Shown: piece by piece, positions 40,544-53,133 of the stretch | Layout of the letters: every line of letters begins with the position of its first letter | Numbering within the stretch: the stretch's first letter is position 1 | NCBI RefSeq assembly: GCF_963676685.1 | Contig: NC_092349.1 | Location: forward strand, 44,826,001 to 44,890,000 | Reading direction: 5' to 3' | Length of the DNA stretch: 64,000 nucleotides | Source of the DNA: Mytilus edulis | Taxonomy: Eukaryota | Made by a program: the position numbers and the translations under genes | The notes under the pieces: generated by a model | What the model saw: only the letters and a program-made list of their open reading frames with translations | Told to the model about the DNA's origin: nothing | The model's database searches: none

Positions 40544-40855
40544 TCATTTGTTTCTTATGATTTTGATAGCTTCATTTGGTAAATCAGCCCTCGATGGGTA
40601 AACAGCTTTCATATTCCCTTCAGTATCTAAAATTTGCACTTGCTCCACAATCAATGTCTTCTGAACTCTTTTTGAAGCCTCATTTTGAGTTTCAGTGTCA
40701 ACAGCGCCCCCTTCAGCACCTTCCTCTTCTGGTTTAGGTGTACCAAGTCCCATATCTAACATCCTGTACAACAATTCATCCATGACCTTCTTACATGTGT
40801 CAAGGTTCAAATGGCTGGTCACCTCTATAAACAAATCTGTTGTATCTTTGGTTAT
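40544..40855 (-). CDS. LRRC47: LRRC47 exon 5 (terminal)
   Basis: ITKDTTDLFIEVTSHLNLDTCKKVMDELL...LIVEQVQILDTEGNMKAVYPSRADL...*. tttcag acceptor. Confidence 0.92.
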   Translation of the reverse strand: MTKDTTDLFIEVTSHLNLDTCKKVMDELLYRMLDMGLGTPKPEEEGAEGGAVDTETQNEASKRVQKTLIVEQVQILDTEGNMKAVYPSRADLPNEAIKIIRNK

Positions 40856-41168
40856 CTGAAATGATTGAAAAAAGTATGATTGTTGTTTCATTTGATTTTT
40901 TTCCCCCCATTAACATGCAGTTATGAAGTGCATTTAAATCACAACTTCATAATCAATATAAAAATATGGAGAATCAGATGAATTCTTTTAGAAAGTCAGA
41001 TGTTTCCAAATATTTTACTCCTCTATGAGTTACATATGTTTTATAAACATGATCTAATTAACATACTAATTTTGATGACTTTCAATATGTAAAAAGATCT
41101 CTTCAAGTAGGGGACTTATAATCTATTATGAATGTTAATTGTTTCAGATTTGAATTCATTGCCATTAA

Positions 41169-41406
41169 GGTGGTACCTAATACTACAGGGAGATAACTCT
41201 GTAAAGTTAGCTCTAAACGTTTTAATTATGTTGTGTTGGAAAAGGAATATTAAGCTTCTCAATGATCAAAATTGGTGTTTGTCAAACTGCTATAAAATTT
41301 TTGAAATTTTTATATTTTTGTTAAAGGATCAAAGTAAATAATTTTACAAAATTTTATGAAAATTAAACGAGCCAAATTAATTTTAGTGGAAGTGTTGGGT
41401 ACCACC
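41169..41406. mobile_element. Kolobok-like MITE, TSD TTAA
   Basis: GGTGGTACC / GGTACCACC with TTAA on both sides. A related internal fragment lies at about 14690-14835. Confidence 0.8.
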
Positions 41407-42204
41407 TTAATATCTAAATATATAGTGAAACTCATTCAAAGCATTAAGGTAAGTGTTATAACTATTATTATAAATCATGTAAATACGTAAAGAGATTTTC
41501 TATACACATGATACATGCAGTTTCCTAAGATGCTAAGGGAGATAATTCTTCAATGCACATAAATCTTTGTATAATTAATTAAACATATGGATTGATATTT
41601 CCTTCATGCATCATTTTTTATAGTATTACGTAAACATGTAAAACAGGCAAATAAAATAATGCATATTTTAAAAACTGGCAAATAAAATAATGCATATTTT
41701 AAAACGGGCAAATATAATAAATATCAGTCAAATAAAATACATTTTTTTTTTAAATTTTCTAACACCATTCACTTTTATGACTTCAGAAATTTAGAACTTT
41801 TAAAACTCTGAATTAAAAATCCTTTTGGGTTTAGGTAGTTATGTAATGATAGCTTTCACCATTGAAACTTGTGTTTTCAAACGAGTAATGGTTTTCCTCC
41901 AGCTTTAAAGTAACTGTTAACTGATAATGGACAGCAACACTTGGATTATCATGGAAATTTATAGTTAATTGATGTTCAAATCTTATAAATCAACTTGAAA
42001 TAAATAATTACAAATGAATTAAGGAAACAACTAAGGGAGTCATAACTCTAAATGGAGCTTGTCTTGTCTCCGTATGAACCTCATTTAAATAGGAGCACCA
42101 CCATGAGTTATGGTGCAAGGCAGCCGTGGTTGGAAAGGTTAATTCATACACATTTGTAAAATTGTTGTCAGATGAATGCTTAGATTAAAATAATAAAATT
42201 AAAG

Positions 42205-42342
42205 TAGTGGCTGATCCAGAACATTTTGTAAGGGGAGCCACTGACTAATCTGGGGGTGGGGTGGGGGGTCCAGTCATGCTTCAAAGATTCCCTACATAAT
42301 CAATTTTTTTTCAAAAAAGGGGCCCCCCAGGATCCGCCTATG
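42205..42342. mobile_element. CAG-type MITE in LRRC47 intron 4, imperfect 5-bp TSD TAAAG/TTAAG
   Basis: TAGTGGCTGATCCAG...GGATCCGCCTATG. Internal sequence matches 11338-11483. Confidence 0.75.
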
Positions 42343-42345
42343 TTA

Positions 42346-42597
<252 letters not shown>

Positions 42598-42789
42598 TTA
42601 GAATTTAGATTCTTGAAAATCTTCTACATGTTCTACAGCATCTTAAATCATCCTGGATAAAAGAAAGATTAATTTCTGGTATCTTTATGCTATATTGAGG
42701 TAAATATCAAAAATAACATTAGTCTTTTTTTTATAGAAAAATGTGTAAATAATATTGCCATACCATTTTAAGGTTTACTTTTGCAGAAT

Positions 42790-43163
42790 ATATAATAATC
42801 CTTATTTGTCATATAAGTAACATTATACGTGTGACATAAACAAAAGTAACAACAACAATAAAATAACTGAGTTAAACACACACATATCTATATATATATA
42901 TACAAGTAAAACTAACTAAGAGTCCCCTGTCCTCAGCTCTAAAGACTGTTTTATAAAGGAACCTGTTTTTTTTTTCACTTGGTTTATATTAGAAGGATTT
43001 AGTAGGACTACTAGTTTTTCAGTATCAGATAGATTTGGAAACATAGGATTATCTATTGCCATGTCATTAAAAAGTTTTATTCGTAAAACATTATTAATTT
43101 GACAGTGGAGGAGAAAGTGATTTTCATCTTCTAAGGTTTTACAAGTTGGACATGTTCTATTGT
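42790..43163 (-). mobile_element. 3' end of the same LINE: CCHC zinc-knuckle C-terminus, stop codon, 3' UTR and (ATT)n-like tail
   Basis: Hand translation RTCPTCKTLEDENHFLLHC...GSFIKQSLELRTGDS* (TAG at 42916-42918), in frame with the upstream part once the hAT and one TSD are removed. Confidence 0.88.
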
Positions 43164-46100
43164 CAGGGGTGTGGAAATATTTGTTGGGAGCGCTTGTCCC
43201 AGGGCAAGTAAAACTGTAAATTCTACTTGTCCGGAAAAAAAGTTACTTGCCCTGAAAGTTCTTATAAAAATTGAAGTATTTTCCTGTTTAAAGCTTGCAC
43301 GTTTCTTAGCACTGTTTTGCATCAAAAAATAAATTTGAGGGCAGTGAGTGAAGAAGAGAAAACTAAATTATAGATTAACTACTGAATTTTAATCTATCAT
43401 GTTAATTGTTATTATCATACAATTGATAAAAAAAATATTTTTGATAAAACAACCTGTTTTATTGAATAAAATAAAATGTCAAAGAAGTTTCTAGTTTGTT
43501 TTTCAAAGAGTTCAAGCATTTTTACATCAAGCTGCATTGATCTGATCCAGATGGTTCACTACTAGCCATTTCTTTAAGTTTGGCTCGTGCAGCTTCTTCC
43601 CCACCAAGTGACTTAACTAAGTCCTGCAAAAGAGGTCTGACATTTGTTACATCTCTATCTTGAGAATGACTTGCAACAGCTTCAGAAGTTGCTTTAACTG
43701 GCAGTTTGTGAGTTAAATGTCTGTTGCCTGATTTTAACCAATATACAACTGATGGTCTAGGATCAAATTCCTTTATACTGACACCATTTACAACAATTTG
43801 CATTTGATTTTGTAGATTTTCCTGTGTTAATTTGCTTCTCAGAGGACTTTTTATTATGTTCATTTGTGAAAAAACTCTTTCACATGCTGCTGATGAGGAA
43901 GATATGGTCAGCATTATTTCAATGAGAACATTAATATTTCTAAAGGAGTCATCTTGCTGCCTTTTTAAAAGGTCACAATATACAATTAGTGGGTAGTTAT
44001 CTTTCTGAAACGAAACTTGAACTTTTAATGTCTGCCATTCTTCATGTGCATTTTTAGATTCCTCATCAGAAATAACACCACTGAAAAGTTAATTGACAAA
44101 GTGATTTAATGTCTGAGTTACCAAATAAACTGAGTTCTGTCAATCTGTGTGGCCATGCCCAAAAATCAAAAACTTTGAAATGGGATAGTGGGGGGATATC
44201 AAAATCAGAAAACCTTTTCAAAACATAATTTCCAATTTTTTCCAAAAGTGTGGAAACATCTTTGTCATCTTTGAAAGGAATCAGGTTCCCTTTAAGTGCA
44301 AGTCTACCGTCAAACATTTTAGTTTCAACATCATATTTCTCATAGAATACAGAGAGATTTTCACTAGGTTCCTGTCTCATAGCATGGATCTTGGAAAATA
44401 GAGTATCCATAGCTGCCTTTACTTCAAAAATCATTAAATCCTTGACCTGAAACAACTTTGAAGTTGCAGATATTGCACCCAAAACATCAAGCATGTCATT
44501 GAGATGGATATATTTTACAAATTTGACCTGTGTTAGGTCACCAAGAATAGCCTTGGCCTGCCCAATTTCATCACAACGTTTGGATTTATTTAAAATTTCT
44601 TCCATGTGTGAGGCTGTAATATGTAAATCTTGACAAACAGCTGTAAGAGCCCTGCTTTTTGAGCTTACCCATCTGACAGCTTTTATTTCTGTATGCATCA
44701 ACAAGTCTTCATCAAATTTTGGCTAAGTTTTTAAGCTCACTCTTCGTTTTGGACTAAAGGAATAAAACTTACAGATACGTTTCAATTCAACTTCAATTTT
44801 TTTCAAATATACAACATCCTTAACAGCATCCAAAATTCCAAGTTCCAGTTTATGGGCAACACAGTGCATAACAATTACTTTGTTGTTAACCTGGTCATTT
44901 ATCTGTTTGGCAACACCATTTTTAGCCCCCATATTGACAGCTGCACCATCCATGTTAACACAGACAATTTTTGGTTGACCTTCAACCTCATTATTACCTA
45001 AATTTATGCCACACTTTGACACACCTGACTTTATTGCAGCATATACACCATCTGCAGTTGCACTTTCTAGATTTTCAATCCTAGCAAGTATAGTTACTGG
45101 TTCGTGTGTCTCAGGGTGGACATATCTGATAAGAACACTTTCTTGTTCCGTCACTGCATGACGAGTCGGTGCTACCGTCTGACATAATAGATATGAACCT
45201 TACCAACTTCATATGTTCTTTTGTTTTGTCAGAAAGAACTCCAGATATGGCTGTCAAGAAATTAACACAGGCATCCCGTCCAAGGTGGTCATTGCCTAGT
45301 TGCATACCATTTTTTATTTGAATGTCACACATAAAACTATAGTCAGAAAATGGTCGATTGTTTTTGACAACTGCATATGCTGTGTTGAAAAGTTTTTCAT
45401 ACATATCAACCTCAGACTGATTGACTTTAGCCAAAGCCCTGTCCATTTCTCCAGAAACCTGTTTTGTTTTATTTGTTTCTCTTAACTGACAAGCTTGGTG
45501 CTTTGCTGAAAAATGATGGGCAGTTAATGTGTCCCTTCTATCTACTACTTTCCCAACAAATAAAGTTGACTTTTGATCGGCAAGTGTTGGATGTTTTCTA
45601 CATATTATACAAAAATTTAATTTATTTTCCGTATTTTCTTCCGTAGAGAGCCAGGGGAACTCTGCTAACCAAGATGGTTGAAAATTCTCGCTTACGTTTT
45701 TTTTTTTCATACTCTTTGTCCTTCTCCGCCTGCGTTTTACGTTTTTTATTCGACTCTGCGACTTTGTCTGCATAATTTGCCCAGTAGTTTAATTAAGTAT
45801 TTGTCCATCGTATTACTGGCCACAGACCACAATTAAATTCTCTATTAGTTCTTTATAACGTTTTGTTTCATTAAAAAAATTGCACCTAATCTTTTTGTCA
45901 AATTTTTTGTGTGTGTAAAGTACAGTTTTAGTCCAAAACTATATCCAAAATTCAGAAAGATTGCTCCTCTGTATTTTACAAATTCAGCTAATACACATCT
46001 ATACCCCTATGGACAAGTCAAAAGATGTTCCGAAAACTGTAAATATCACCTTTTTGCACCTGGCCTAATCACTCTTTCCATATCAAAATCAGTTAAAATA

Positions 46101-46674
46101 AAACATCCAACAGTTTATTTTACCTCTCTTCTTTCATTTCCACCCCAGAAAAGCTAAGAAATGTATGAGAAAGGGAAAGAAAAAAAATTAAGAAAAAATA
46201 CACTATAATTAAAGGGAACTTAAAGACAACGAAAAGTGGGATCATTAATTGTGGGCCTACTAGGATATGGACTAAAGGTAAATGACACTTCCGTTTTAGA
46301 ATGGATAAAACCTAGTCGACGATCCCGGGTCAATGGACAAAGACAACGCAGTATTTACGAGACCTGGGTTCGCATACTTATTTTATTTTAATTTGTTTAT
46401 CGATCTTTTACCGGTGTTTTTTTTTAATATTTATCGTCATGAACATTGATGTTTAAACTTAAATATATGTGTTTTAATTTTTACCATTGGTTTCCTTTAC
46501 ATAAAATTAAACTGCTTTATAAGTTTGAAAAATAATTATATATTTTTGTATGAATTCAACTTTGTCTAATATTATTTTTTACTTGTCCACGGGCAACCCA
46601 GACAAAAAAGTCACTTGTCCGGATGATCAAATGTACGAGTCGGGCGAGTCGGGCATAGCATTTCCACACCCCTG
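43164..46674 (-). mobile_element. hAT DNA transposon (ZNF862-like transposase, frameshifted), 15-bp TIRs, 5-bp TSD ATTGT
   Basis: TIRs CAGGGGTGTGGAAAT / ATTTCCACACCCCTG. ATTGT at 43159-43163 and 46675-46679. Subterminal CTTGTCC/GGGCAAG repeats at both ends. Confidence 0.92.
43522..45773 (-). pseudogene. Frameshifted hAT transposase (TTF-type zinc finger, DDE core, C-terminal dimerisation domain)
   Basis: Consecutive ORFs carry FQPSWLAEFPWL..FCIICRKH, ISIMSDGSTD, MDGAAVNMG, HCVAHKLEL (CxxH), VRWVS and SSSAACERVFSQMNIIKS. At least 3 frame breaks. Confidence 0.9.
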
Positions 46675-46679
46675 ATTGT

Positions 46680-47835
46680 CTCGAGGTATTTTTAGATATC
46701 TGCCCTTCTCAATAAGCAAATTATGGTCATTAATTCTAATTTTTGTAAATAAACGTCTAGTTTCAAAATTGTGATATTTTAGATAAAATTCTTGGTCTTG
46801 TTTGACTTTAATATTTTTGTAAAGAAAAAGTTTGTTATTTTCATTCAAACTATTAATTTTATTTTCCAGTAGTTCTGAATAAAATCTACTTGTAATATTC
46901 TTAATCCAAGTCTTTAGTTTGTTAACTTGTTCCATATTTTGACAGGACATTACTTTTTGTATATCAATATTCATTTCTTGTGTTGAATCTTTTATAAAAG
47001 TGGACCAAGTATAAACTCCTTGTGAATCAAGGTGTTTACTTAATGTATAACTTTCTTTTAGCAATGGGTTTATGTTTTCAGTATTTAATCTAGCCCAATA
47101 AAGAATTGCTTGTGTTTTTATATATTTTTCTATTGGTTGTCTACCAAGTTCAGCTTTAACACCTAAATTAGCAGATGTTTTTTTAGTACCTAAAATATAT
47201 CTACAGAAATTATTATGAACCTTTTCGAAGGGAGTCTTATCCAAATATTGGAAATTATCTATATCTTTGTTTTGGGTTTTTAATCTGCCTTTTGCTCTAT
47301 AATAAGATTGATATGTATCCATGTATGATATTTCAGCATTATATGTTAAAATTGGTTTTATAAGAGAATCAAAAAGATTACAGGATACATTAACAGGAAA
47401 ATTTCCCAAAAAGGCTGCATGTGTTTTTAATGAAAACAGTGCTTTCCTAGCTTTTTTGGTTAAATCTGTTAAACTTGCATTTAGATTTTCATTATTTTTT
47501 ATCAGAGTGCCCAGAAATTTATACTCAGTAACGTTATCAATTTTTTCATTATTGAACCTTACAATGTATGGTTCCAGTTTTGTAGTTCTTTGTTCAATGA
47601 TCATTGTTTTTGTTTTTTTAGTATTTAGACATAACTGCCATTTTTCACAGTAATTTGATAAGTTATTTAAGCTATTTTGAAGACCTTCTTTACTTTCGGA
47701 TAAAATTATAAGGTCATCGGCAAACAAAAGACTTCCTATATCAGAATTTAATATTCTCAAGAGTTTTGAACCTTTATGGTCAAAATTTTCAACTATATCA
47801 TTAATAAATAAATTGAAGAGTGTGGGACTAATACT
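46680..47835 (-). mobile_element. 5'-truncated LINE ORF2 (RT and downstream region, RTE-X-like by inference), part upstream of the hAT insertion
   Basis: Motifs SPTLFNLFIND, LLFADDLII, YKFLG, ELGRQP and RINDHNLLIEKGRYLKIPRDN. Confidence 0.88.
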
Positions 47836-48171
47836 GTAGCTGTATAGTGTCATGTTGATTACTTTGTGAATTCAAAATGGTTTTGTCCAGTTTGTTACAT
47901 TTTGATACACCACATGTTGAATAACCCTGCTGACTACCATATTTAATCTTCTCTTGTTAGTTAAATTTTAAATGTTTAATTGCTCAAGTAACTTGGCATT
48001 TTTAAGCCTGAGAATTTAGCTATCTTAAGAGAGAATTTCCTATATAACCATTGATAACCTTCTTGTTGATGTGGCAGAGTTTATAATTACATGTAGCACT
48101 ATGATATATATGTTTTATAACCTGCTAATACAAAAGACAAAATTATGGCATGTAAATGTTATATTTAAGAA

Positions 48172-48310
48172 TTGAATGCTTCTTTTTGTAACTTTATTGG
48201 GGTGTAAAAGCGTTGACCGAAGTATATTTTGTATGAAGCGCTTCATTCTAAAAAAGTGTGCACCGTCAACGCTTTTACAACCCTATGAAGTTACAAAAAG
48301 AAGCATTCAA
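48172..48310. repeat. Long imperfect inverted repeat (fold-back), part of an interspersed element extending to about 48525
   Basis: TTGAATGCTTCTTTTTGTAACTT..GTAAAAGCGTTGAC pairs with GTCAACGCTTTTAC..AAGTTACAAAAAGAAGCATTCAA. Confidence 0.8.
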
Positions 48311-48629
48311 CACTTATAATTACATTATTTAGCTAGGATCATGAAAACACGATTTACATCAAGTTTCTTTTTAATTTACCTGTGCACTTTATTATGGGAC
48401 TTCCTGTCATCATGAATTATAAGTTTTATTGTGTAATGCAATTGCTTAAGGAATAACATGTGATGTGCAGTTAGCCAATCAGAATAATTTACGTATTATA
48501 ATGAAACATACATCTAATGTAATTATCACAAAGTCACATCTTATAGGTGTGCACTTTGAATTTATCTTACTCATTCTATTAATGGTCATAATTTTCAATC
48601 ATCATTCATAACAATAAACAAGCCCTTAC

Positions 48630-48748
48630 TTATGTATGCCTGACACTGTGTTTCTCTTCTTTTCTTTCCGCTGCTCTTCTGCTTCTCTGTTCAAATCTGT
48701 CACTAGCTTTTCACCAGACACTTCTTTTTGTTTAAATAATGGAGTAAT
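48630..48748 (-). CDS. LRRC47: LRRC47 exon 3 (119 nt)
   Basis: ITPLFKQKEVSGEKLVTDLNREAEEQRKEKKRNTVSGIH(K). ag/GTAAG boundaries, phase 0 to 2. Confidence 0.9.
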
Positions 48749-49494
48749 CTATAAAAGAAAAATCCATCAAAAACAGAATACTATGGTAATGGACCATTTT
48801 CATATTACAGACTTTTGACTGCAGGTTCTACAATTATTATACTGGTTACATACTTTAGAGGGGGGGCAAGGGGTTTAACTGTTTTGCTGTTATGGGGCAA
48901 TTTAATTCTTTGTTATCTGTTATTCTGAAAATATATTTGCTGTTAGCTGTTATTGTCTTATTCATTGTTAGCTGTTATTGGGCTTTTAGTTTTTTTGTTA
49001 TCTGTTATTGTGATAATGTATTTGCTGTTAACTGTTATTGAAAATTGGAATGTTAGCATTTTTTTGACAGTCAATATTCGGTAGAAATTGAAGATCATTG
49101 GACATTAGGGTCTACCAATAGTAATATGTTGGTCCAGTATTCGGAGAGGGATTCCATTAACATATACCCATTACAGAAGTGAGGTCCAGGACAATTCCAG
49201 TATATCTTATGATTATCCTTTGTAATAAATTCCATTTTTTTTTTGGAATATGTATTTAGAATTATCTTGTTTTTTTGTATGAGGATAATGTTCCTTGTTT
49301 CCCGTACCAACATATTAAATCAGAACGATTATTAATATGACAAAAAGGAAAACATATGGCCAGGATTATCTGACAAGAATCTCAATTAAGGACTAGGTCC
49401 TTACAACCAGTTAACCTTTTAGATAATATGGTACATTGACTCAGCTCTGTGATTCTCTTCAAAACAGAACCAAACACATTGTACAATGAAAGTT

Positions 49495-49860
49495 CCAACC
49501 ATGTACTGGGTCCCGAAGCAGCACATAGCTGATTACAAACAAAGATTTATTTCGTCTTCAAGCCATTGCTCCCCTATTAAACTATGTATTCTACTTACTA
49601 GTACACTTGGTCCAATCAATAGCCTGATAAAAAATTGTTCAAATTGAGCCTTTGAAAATAATGGAATAAATTACTTTTGGAGTGTCAAAATTGGTTTGAG
49701 GTACTTGAAAAGTTGCATGCTTATAATTGGTGCTTTTGATTTTTCTACCCTATAAACTGACCACTTTGCCTCATAGTTTTATTAAGAAAAATTCACACAC
49801 CTCATTAGATGGGCATTTAAAAAAGTCAGAATGCGAATATATATATTCAAACTATCTTAG
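49495..49860 (+). mobile_element. Decayed Penelope-like RT fragment
   Basis: PTMYWVPKQHIADYKQRFISSSSHCS (compare YWxPKxHK..RFI), FWSVK and FDFSTL. Confidence 0.7.
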
Positions 49861-50061
49861 GTAATTTTAGTAGCAACAAACACAAGAACTATGTGAATTG
49901 AATACCATAATAGCCCTTGAATTTTTACTAGATATCATTTTTGTCTCTTTGACATATTCCTCATTTCCATTCTCAATTTTATTACACACTATTTAAATTA
50001 CAAGCATGTGTGAGTTTCTATAACTGTATAAAAATAGATGCTGAAAAAAAGTATTCTATAA

Positions 50062-51302
50062 CAAATAAACAGCTACGCCATGAGCGCATGATACGTCCAT
50101 CGCCCTTTTTGAAAGATTCGATTACTTCTTTATGTCATATCAGATATTTATAAAAATTGAAAGGGAGCTTCAGTCAATATAAATAAACAATACACCAAAG
50201 TTTCATGAGAACTGCTGAAAAAAAAATTCAGTTATTGACCGAAAACTTGAAATACCACCTTTTTTAATGAATAAAACCCCTTAACTCAATAACATAAAAT
50301 CTAAAATTAATCAAAATAGAAAGGGCGCTTATGCAACAGAAAAGTTTAATGAGAACTGCTGAAAACGTTTTTGTGTTATTATGTCCGAAAACTGGAAAAT
50401 CACCCCTTTTTAATTAACAAAACCCCTTAAGGGCATACGATACAGTTTTGATTCTGTATTTACAGTTTGATGAAAATTTCATATAGGCTAGTTTTTGCCT
50501 GCTTAAATCAAATATGTAATAAAAAATATACCTTCATGTGCTACTTTTTGAGTTTATAAATGAGGTCGAAATTTTGTATATTTGCTCAAAATTCGGATTT
50601 GTGGCCGTATTTTCCCTTTCGAAAGAAAGCCATAACTTTTTTGTTTTAAAAGATAAACACAAATTGTTTTTTGTTAGATAATTTGTAATTTTCGTATTTT
50701 ATAAGTATCCTAAAAAAATATGCATTTTTTATTCAGAAATAACTCGTATTTATCAAATGGTCATGAATTAAGAAGAAATCATATTTTTTTGCTGTATATT
50801 TATCAAAATTGAAAAAATTCCTCTATCTACAGTTTTATAAAATTTGGTCCACATAATCTCCCTGCAAAATGAAACAAAATGACGTTTTAAAAAATAGGGG
50901 TCCATGCACTTGTTTTCAAATTAAATCAGTTTGAATGATAAAAAATATCGTATGCCCTTAACTCGGAAACGTAAAATCTGAAATTTATAAAAATTGAAAG
51001 GGAGCTCATGACAATAGATAGTAACAATTCACCAAAATTCCTTGCAAATTTGTGAAAGGATTTTTGAGATATTATCAGAAAACTGAAAAAAACCCACCAT
51101 TTTTATTGAATAAAACCCCATTACTCAGAAACTTAAAATCTGAAAATTATGAAATACGAAGGCCGGAGCTCACGTCAATAGATATAAACAATTTCCAAAA
51201 GTTTTATGCAAATTGGTTAAAGAGTGTTGGAGTTAATATTCGACATGTTGACGACAGACGGACAACAGTATTCCATAATACGTCCTGTAAACGAGCGTAT
51301 AA
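50062..51302 (+). mobile_element. HINE-like element interrupted by the Kolobok-like element
   Basis: ATACGTCC motif near both ends, repeated AAGGGAGCT cores, GACAGACGGAC tract, ending ACGAGCGTATAAAAA. Confidence 0.6.
50431..50957. mobile_element. Kolobok-like non-autonomous element, TSD TTAA
   Basis: GGGCATACGATA / TATCGTATGCCC with TTAA on both sides. Confidence 0.8.
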
Positions 51303-52562
51303 AAATATATTGAGTAGTAAACACATTCCAGAAACATAATTTTAAAAAACATGTTCATAGAAAATGGAATTCATTACTAAGGATTATACCCGTAATAAGA
51401 AATACTGAATTTGTCAAGGTCCCGACTTATTTTAATTTTTCATTTACTGTTATCTGTTTTTGTACATTTTAATTCCTTGTTATCTGTTATGAGCCAAATC
51501 AATTTGCTGTTTTGCTGTTATTGGGACCCCCCTTGCCCCCCCTCACTTTAGGTACAATGTAGAACATCCTGGTACTCAGTTAATTACGAGCAGCCCAAAA
51601 AAAAATCAAATATATGACTGGTGCAATTTAGGGGGAAATTTACTATTTTCCGATGATTTATTCATGCATAGAAAGCATTTAAACAATTAACTTTCCCTCA
51701 GAATTGTACTGATTAAACTTCAATTTACTTATTCATGTTGCTCTTGCTTATCTCAGTACCAGAATGTCCTACCACAGAGATCGAAGGTAACCTGCTTAAA
51801 TATCAATTCCAGAGTCAAAAGTCGATTATATGAAAATGGACTATTGTGATCATGTAAATTCCTTTTTGGAATAAATATAATTATGCCATATCATTTAGAC
51901 ATTTTTAAGGATTTTCATGATTATTTCGGGTAAAAAATTAGCTTCCAATACATTTTGAAATAAAAGATTGCAGTATTTTTTTATAAACAGATACTTTATC
52001 ATGCTAATTACAGTGCACACAAGGAGCAAATTAATTTCAATGAATCATACATTAAGTATTACATATTGAATAAAGATATGAAAGAAATTGCAATGATTTA
52101 AAACAGATTTCAATTTGAAAACAAACAAAAAATCTTAAGTTATGCTAGTCATGCTTGTGGTTTTTAATCAACTGGTCTTCTCTAAAATTACAAAACATGT
52201 ATTGCCAAATATCAAAATTGTGTTGGTTCTTTGTAAATTTCTGTGGCCACGACCTACAGACTATCACTTTTAAAGAACTTTGCATTCCCCCCCCCCCCAA
52301 ACCCCCTGTCTCAATGAGTACCATCATGAGTCGACCATGATTACAATAACAATGGTACTCATGGTACTATTCATTTCATCTAATAAAAAAATATGGAAAG
52401 AAATAGTAAATGAACTTTTATTAATCCAGTGATCTCCAGATATACATCTCCAATCATGCATTGTTGGTTTTAATCTAGCTTAAGCGTGCATGCTTTTCAT
52501 AAAATAAAGCTTCTATTTTAGATAACATATCTTTGGTTTACTAAAAAATTTCTATTTCTTAC

Positions 52563-52679
52563 CATTAGAGCATGTGGAAATTTGGCATCATAAACTATTG
52601 GTTTCTTGATGGACTTCAAATCATGTGTAGCAATGGTTGCTGCTTGTCTCTTCTGACATATCTCATCATGCAGTTTTGT
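52563..52679 (-). CDS. LRRC47: LRRC47 exon 2 (117 nt)
   Basis: Hand translation TKLHDEICQKRQAATIATHDLKSIKKPIVYDAKFPHALM, the B3/4 PheRS-beta-like motif. ttttacag acceptor and GTAAG donor. Confidence 0.9.
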
Positions 52680-53133
52680 CTGTAAAAAAAAAAGAATATA
52701 ATATATATTATTCCATCTTTATGTCTTAATGTATTTTATTTTACATGTGTCAGATTATTTCTGAACTTGGTGAAGTTGAAATTTTTGTACTATCAATGAT
52801 TTTGTCAGTTTGTGTGCTTTGCTAAAAGTAAAATTAAGATTGGAAATCATGAATATGGGGGAATGTGTCAGAGAGACAACAACATGACCATAGAGCATGC
52901 ATATACCACAAAGGTGTATATTAATCATGTTTTATCATGTTTATTCTGTATTTCTTTTTAATTTATTTTACAGATTTTTGGCTGTATCTGTGCAGTGTTT
53001 TCTGGTTGATTCATGGAAAAAAAATCACTATTTTCTGTGTTCAGTAGCTAGTGGTCACTTTGAAACAAGATGATAATTTATGATTGAGGGTCAAACCACC
53101 ATGGCTTTTTTTTTTTTAACTTTTTTGGATTCG

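Follow-up and report, generated by a model that had tools for sequence, protein, structure and literature searches.

A decayed hAT DNA transposon with a 5-bp target-site duplication in the mussel Mytilus edulis

The stretch of DNA analyzed here, which we call the window, comprises 64,000 nucleotides of the Mytilus edulis genome (contig NC_092349.1, positions 44,826,001 to 44,890,000), and coordinates below are counted from its first letter. At 43164–46674, on the minus strand, lies a hAT DNA transposon of 3,511 bp, or 3,067 bp when a nested miniature inverted-repeat transposable element (MITE) is subtracted along with one copy of its 4-bp duplication. The element itself is dead, but it belongs to a hAT family that was active recently and makes 5-bp target-site duplications (TSDs). 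We consider it very probable that a full-length hAT inserted with a 5-bp TSD into a young long interspersed nuclear element (LINE) and was broken by six frameshifts, and that its family is likely of the hAT5 kind. As an instance of a hAT type that has received little study, the locus is clean and dated, and other mussel sequencing runs contain a relative free of frameshifts. The part worth following is the mixture of TSD lengths among its relatives.

A 5-bp duplication at the locus and at elements with the same ends

The element is bounded by two terminal inverted repeats (TIRs), CAGGGGTGTGGAAAT at 43164–43178 (plus strand, at the 3' end of the gene) and its exact inverse at 46660–46674 (minus strand, at the 5' end of the gene), which match at 15 of 15 positions. 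Comparison of the flanks with sister LINE copies places the TSD, ATTGT, at 43159–43163 on the left and at 46675–46679 on the right. Beyond ATTGT the flanks disagree, the 8-mers being alike at 2 of 8 positions, the 6-mers at 1, and the 7-mers at 3. The perfect 15-bp TIRs, the ATTGT flanks, and the non-matching 8-mers had all been reported in the original prediction, made from the letters of the window, and we saw each of them again. A 15-bp TIR and a length of 3.5 kb fall within the ranges given for the hAT superfamily (TIRs of 10–25 bp, elements of 2.5–5 kb; PMC3942097). Farther in, ACTTG(T/C)CC motifs occur at 43225 and 43245, with an inverse copy at 43202 (43202–43252 overall), and ACTTGTCC motifs occur at 46581 and 46613 (46581–46620 overall), oriented as at the other end. 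By analogy, these subterminal motifs near both ends are likely to be transposase-binding repeats.

The TSD of the element is 5 bp, as sister LINEs and elements with the same ends show. It had been argued that excising the element together with exactly 5 bp, which yields an open LINE frame (..KIPRDNRTCPTCKTLEDENHFLLHC..ELRTGDS and then a stop), supports this length independently. The length was correct, but the argument does not hold: because the frame also reopens when 2, 8, or 11 bases are removed with the element, the test shows only that the number is 2 modulo 3, which is compatible with 8 bp. The uninterrupted LINE copies, which had been named as a possible source of contradiction, instead agree with the 5-bp reconstruction. 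A single ATTGT, at the junction CTATTGT followed by CTCGAG, is present in 23 of the 24 sister copies fetched; 19 are identical over 40 nt and 4 have one mismatch. In the 24th copy, a 1-bp indel shifts the register, and the junction is the same.

The survey of other copies, also suggested in the original prediction, gave the same length. The TIR has 360 exact matches in the genome (versus 1 for a reversed control), mostly in pairs ~1.1 kb apart. The first 100 TIR matches listed include 38 paired loci, which we examined; 30 of 39 TIR pairs had an exact 5-bp TSD before a duplicated locus was dropped. At the 37 independent sites, the TSD is exactly 5 bp at 29 and 7 bp at 1, and none is seen at 7; the chance expectation of a 5-mer flank match is ~0.002 per site. 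Neither the 8 bp of canonical hATs (Ac, Buster, Tip) nor the 6 bp of hAT6 occurs at any of the 37, and the empty site gains 5 bp upon insertion; the 5 bp that marks hAT5 is found in the window element and in copies with the same TIR. A further 20 unpaired TIR matches led to 9 degenerate partners, of which 3 have an exact 5-bp TSD and none has another length. The duplicated bases follow no strict consensus.

At this locus alone, the reading frame or the flanking sequence would also permit two other accounts. One is a canonical 8-bp hAT with a trimmed duplication; the other is a 3-bp TSD beside TIRs of 16 bp, which predicts an identical empty site here. We regard both as extremely improbable. 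The empty sites prove a gain of exactly 5 bp, 8 bp occurs at 0 of 37 sites, and the base immediately outside the terminal CAG varies freely between copies, for which reason the 16-bp TIR is rejected.

The ~1.1-kb elements that supply most of these counts are MITEs 70–85% identical to the window element. On these identities they appear to be related families with the same ends, and their derivation by deletion from the window element itself is not supported. Two pairs of MITE insertions (L083/L084 and L031/L061) have common flanks and TSDs at different places in the genome and were therefore probably copied within a larger repeat or duplication. Among the otherwise strict 5-bp sites, L067 and L068 show one exact 7-bp TSD and one possible 9-bp TSD with a mismatch.

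The transposase, its lesions, and the annotated gene

The transposase pseudogene occupies 43522–45808 on the minus strand (ATG at 45808, stop at 43522–43524) and has no introns. The original prediction called the transposase near-complete. This is correct as to length, 755 codons, but the gene is split into seven pieces by six frameshifts, near 45773 (+4), 45681 (+1), 45155 (+4), 44738 (-1), 44713 (-2), and 44089 (+4), so that the intact open reading frame (ORF) of an autonomous element is absent. Relative to intact homologues it is full length, and the true frames contain no in-frame stop. Assembly error is an unlikely source of the frameshifts because two of them are carried exactly by contigs of run X1, which match the window base for base. 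A protein 96% identical to the transposase (P0019) reads through the last frameshift. A second coding copy in the genome (L002) is 89% identical, internally deleted, and flanked by a TSD matching at 4 of 5 positions.

Four insertions in the transposase share a further property. Those at 44089, 44494, 45155, and 45773 (three of 4 bp and one of 6 bp) each lie in or form a short palindrome, in TTAA, TGCA, and TAAT/AATT contexts, and might resemble footprints of repair or excision.

The prediction of a hAT transposase of ZNF862-like type is borne out. The hAT C-terminal domain (43801–43965, minus strand) is recognized by Pfam PF05699 at 27.5 bits against a cut-off of 21.4, and homologues at 52–64% identity, from Haliotis among others, as well as more distant ones in Dreissena and Saccostrea, are called "ZNF862-like" wherever they are named. 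A putative N-terminal zinc finger in BED-like position (45468–45659, minus strand) matches Pfam zf-C17orf113 with an E value of 2e-5, below the curated cut-off. The first catalytic Asp (SDGSTD, 45177–45179, minus strand), assigned by motif and fold, lies at the end of a predicted strand; the second (MDGA, 44948–44950, minus strand) is followed by a CxxH motif at 44863–44852, and the catalytic Glu (CERVFS) lies at 43881–43879. All of the SDGSTD, MDGA, CxxH, RW, and CERVFS motifs, whose roles we presume to be those of their counterparts in hAT enzymes, are kept. Sequence searches of the PDB returned no transposase or other relevant match. A structure model of a relative 64% identical to the window transposase (P0002, predicted local distance difference test score 76), however, has Hermes as its top match (E 5e-10), and the next matches, ISCth4 and the P element, have E values of 1e-3 or worse. 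Taken with the PF05699 domain, the RNase H-like Asp-Asp-Glu (DDE) core, CxxH and W motifs, and the Hermes-like fold modeled for P0002 identify the element as a hAT.

Hermes of Musca domestica (PDB 4D1Q; PMC10368747) shares with the window element a DDE core with a helical insertion, short TIRs, and subterminal repeats, and its zinc finger may have a counterpart there. It differs in sequence (16% identity) and in its duplications, which are 8 bp of the form nTnnnnAn in that account, versus 5 bp without strict consensus in the window family. In the mechanism that we propose, an intact transposase of the family would use its putative N-terminal zinc finger to bind the subterminal repeats and the TIRs with their CAG ends. 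Its Hermes-like DDE core would then cut the element out and attach its two ends to the target strands at a spacing of 5 bases, and host repair would leave ATTGT on each side. The copies establish the 5-base stagger; the chemistry and the role of the repeats are inferred from Hermes. The shorter stagger would likely arise from a more sharply bent target or from closer active sites.

The locus also coincides with an annotated gene. A 379-amino-acid Mytilus protein named "zinc finger protein 862-like" (P0012) matches it at 98–99%, which would fit a domesticated host gene of ZNF862-like type. This, too, is very hard to sustain. The P0012 model passes the frameshifts by means of gaps, all six frameshifts are present, the TIRs and TSD are intact within a LINE only 1% old, and one raw RNA run (X24) gave 2 reads. 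By comparison of the sequences, P0012 is a gene model drawn across the broken transposon, an instance of an annotated ZNF862-like gene that is a dead transposon.

Duplication lengths among relatives and named hAT groups

To place the 5-bp length, we counted TSDs in related families of the same genome (G000). A search with one piece of transposase gave 63 matches, of which 40 were fetched and examined for ends; TSDs were then counted in MITEs carrying each family's TIR, at 3–37 sites per family on chromosomes C1–C5, and in coding copies. Several families are strictly or nearly strictly 5 bp: L143 (5 bp at 5 of 7 sites), L146 (all 3 copies inspected by eye), L156 (5 bp at 14 and 6 bp at 1 of 16), and L167 (5 bp at 11 of 15, 2 being ambiguous). 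Others are mixed. L158 has 6 bp at 13, 5 bp at 7, and 7 bp at 3 of 30 sites; L153 has 6 bp at 4 and 5 bp at 4 of 8, counted from exact pairs because a loose pattern was noisy (68 control matches); L151 has one site of 6 bp and one of 5 bp. At the long end, L165 has 8 bp at 14, 7 bp at 4, and 6 bp at 3 of 23 sites, and L162 has 8 bp at 3 of 3. We therefore group the window family with L143, L146, L156, and L167 as strict 5; L153 and L151 as 5/6; L158 as 5/6/7; L165 as 6/7/8; and L162 as strict 8. The labels of L157, L161, and L176 come from one copy each. Likeness to ZNF862 is thus no predictor of 5 bp, as relatives in the genome give 5, 6, 7, and 8 bp.

The mixed lengths are for the most part not explained by subfamilies. 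In L153, where copies with 5 bp and with 6 bp differ by 0.6%, TSD length shows no association with subfamily (permutation p = 0.32), and the same is true of L165 (p = 0.40 and 0.48). L158 shows some structure (p = 0.026), due to two divergent 7-bp copies; in this family, 5- and 6-bp copies 2.6–2.8% apart occur. Small deletions beside the TIR would mimic mixed lengths. Overall, we put at about even chances the proposal that the stagger of ZNF862-like hATs is labile, such that sister families are strictly 5, mixed, or strictly 8, and one transposase gives several lengths. If this is true, hAT5 and hAT6 are points on a continuum and not separate kinds, and the families form a natural series for asking what sets the stagger of a DDE transposase, with the window family at the strict 5-bp end. 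Classification of DNA transposons makes use of TSD length, and annotation pipelines filter by it, expecting 8 bp of a hAT. Should related families produce 5, 6, 7, or 8 bp, some of them more than one length within a family, a large number of elements of this type would escape detection or be filed wrongly, and what sets the spacing of strand-transfer sites would become testable by comparison of related enzymes.

Several of these families have features of their own. L153 and L369–L375 (TIR CAGGGCTTTCAATA) make up a mixed 6/5-bp hAT family whose coding copy, L153, has an open frame of 914 codons. The family of L165, L262–L285, and L356–L368 (TIR CAGGGTTTCC) has ~990 TIR matches. In that of L158, L203–L226, and L316–L335 (TIR CAGAGCTCCAGATAAG), several sites scored as having no TSD resemble a 6-bp repeat displaced by one or two bases. 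L143 and L144 (G000, chromosome C2 at 26.28 Mb and chromosome C1 at 110.06 Mb) represent a sister 5-bp family (TIR CAGGGGTTAAAAAA, 220 matches for one end) as two near-identical copies of 3.45 kb, in which the transposase lies in two open pieces, likely two exons; they are a possible active hAT5-like element in G000. At L148 (G000, chromosome C6, 76.92–76.93 Mb), two L146-family transposase copies lie ~4.3 kb apart in the same orientation.

The group of hATs with 5-bp TSDs, hAT5, was reportedly introduced by Kapitonov and Jurka in Repbase Reports in 2007. According to PMC12730594, the definitions of hAT5 and hAT6, by TSDs of 5 and 6 bp, date from 2007 and that of hAT7 from 2025; hAT5 and hAT6 are placed there in one lineage together with Blackjack and further animal hATs. 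The window element resembles hAT5 in its hAT transposase, 5-bp TSD, and invertebrate host, hAT5 being known from invertebrates and fish (PMC9004415). The original prediction of a mollusc lineage with 5-bp TSDs is sound in that hAT5 is the nearest named group; it is not new, since hAT5 is named in the account of piRNA (PIWI-interacting RNA) clusters of a pond snail (PMC6128900). A curated bivalve library with 133 hAT consensus sequences (PMC10294476) may contain the window family. Like that family, hAT6 and hAT7 are named by a TSD other than 8 bp, but the window family has no 6-bp site, and its relatives mix 5 and 6 bp in one family, a mixture not found in the descriptions of the named groups. 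Some variation of TSD length inside a hAT group is already known, since hATm has 8 or 9 bp (PMC6004678). Homologues named ZNF862-like occur in Haliotis, Dreissena, Saccostrea, and Mytilus. The Tip family of hATs, a further point of comparison, has its TSD given as 8 bp (PMC3942097). In the literature searched, which did not extend to Repbase Reports and most subscription journals, we found no description of the window family, its TIR, or its MITEs, no terminal sequences for hAT5 families, and no publication about hATs with mixed 5/6-bp TSDs. A metagenome scan for relatives with flanks gave 61 pattern matches, none of them confirmed.

Phylogeny bears on whether the 5-bp families are one group. 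The first tree omitted 11 near-duplicate or partial rows, and the second used 18 chosen rows. The window family forms a clade with L143, L146, and L151 (support 100/98) on an unresolved backbone; the nearest families in the genome, L143 and L146, likewise give 5 bp. It is conceivable, although we think it distinctly less probable than a hAT5 affiliation, that the 5-bp lineage is independent of the hAT5 clade, short staggers having arisen repeatedly among ZNF862/Tip100-like hATs and drifted between 5 and 8 (we take ZNF862 to be linked to Tip100-type hATs). The 5-bp families do fall in separate, strongly supported clades, families defined by a single TIR give mixed lengths, and joining all 5/6-bp families in one clade is rejected by the approximately unbiased (AU) test (p = 0.003, in a tree with long branches in which L154 and L173 lack a TSD label). 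But the AU test does not reject the union of the two strict 5-bp groups (p = 0.22), the branches are long, and L157, L161, and L176 count by one copy each. An earlier rejection of a single clade (p = 4.5e-7) is void, as it left outside two families, L146 and L151, that proved to have 5-bp TSDs.

History of the locus, the nested MITE, and the host gene

Part of the window stretch is contained in 20 sequencing runs, and contigs of two of these, X15 and X16, are ~98% identical to the window transposase. We take them as evidence of presence and not of transcription; the X15 contig reaches almost to the TIR. At the frameshift sites they differ from the window by indels; this holds for all six in X15 and for the four covered by X16, which adds lesions of its own there. 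X15, which has a coverage gap at 43838–43991, differs from the window transposase by 39 substitutions in ~2,150 bp. Of the 38 that are listed, 18 are synonymous and none could create a stop. Because 18 of 38 are synonymous, part of this distance probably arose under selection. The near-identical X15 copy has no nested MITE and a different flank. Because the X15 and X16 contigs differ by indels at the frameshift sites, they point to a frameshift-free family member in related animals and to a family that moved recently.

The host LINE differs from the majority of 24 sister copies by 1.0% in its 5' part and 1.3% in its 3' part, and the nested MITE differs from its nearest copy by 1.6%. These values fit an intact element that inserted soon after the LINE and later decayed in place. 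In such a history, a 5'-truncated LINE would have entered an intron of an LRRC47-like gene, an intact element would, likely soon afterward, have jumped into the LINE, and decay in place would then have added indels and a MITE with a 4-bp TSD just upstream of the ATG.

Several points weigh against our account of the element as an intact insertion of hAT5 kind. First, the transposon has nine indels relative to X15 in ~1.8 kb, versus one or two in 1.5 kb of LINE. Second, no intact copy was found in G000 among the scored candidates. Third, the ~1.1-kb MITEs share the TIR but may have been mobilized by a sister transposase. Fourth, the hAT5 name draws on just two features, the TSD length and a hAT transposase. 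Finally, several related families have mixed TSD lengths, which makes 5 bp less telling of the family than that name implies.

The excess of indels leaves room for a copy that a related transposase, acting in trans, carried into the LINE when it was already broken and MITE-bearing. The perfect TIRs and TSD, and the failure to find an intact copy, would also suit such a move. We nevertheless think it improbable, and slightly more so than an independent origin of the 5-bp lineage. Substitution loads are alike in the LINE (~1.1%) and the transposon (~1.3–1.9%, partly synonymous), the same lesions or nested MITE were found at no second site among the best 40 of 2,147 candidates, and the near-identical X15 copy is free of lesions and sits beside a different flank. 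Insertion of an intact element, followed by decay, remains the reading that we prefer.

The nested MITE (45818–46257) is a high-copy, 440-bp element with GGCC..GGCC ends and the 4-bp TSD TACT (45814–45817 and 46258–46261), located 5 bp upstream of the transposase ATG. It is not present in L002, which has an empty site there, and is skipped by contigs of X1, X4, X7, and X15. Of 17 sister MITEs in which both ends are present, 10 have an exact 4-bp TSD. Members of its family are 440–450 bp long with GGCC ends and mostly 4-bp TSDs, and some copies stand in tandem.

The host LINE is split by the transposon into a 3' part at 42790–43163 (minus strand), with the end of ORF2 (a CxxC..HxxxxC finger and a stop at 42916) and the 3' tail, and a 5' part at 46675–47837 (minus strand), with a 5'-truncated reverse transcriptase (Pfam RVT_1, E 3e-14). 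Its sister copies include 40 scored matches at 94–100%. An exon of an LRRC47-like gene lies nearby at 42346–42480 (minus strand). The gene spans 40570–52690 of the window on that strand, with exon-like matches near 52650, 48670, 42400, 40830, and 40600. As such matches lie on both sides, the LINE and the transposon sit together in a single intron of this gene.

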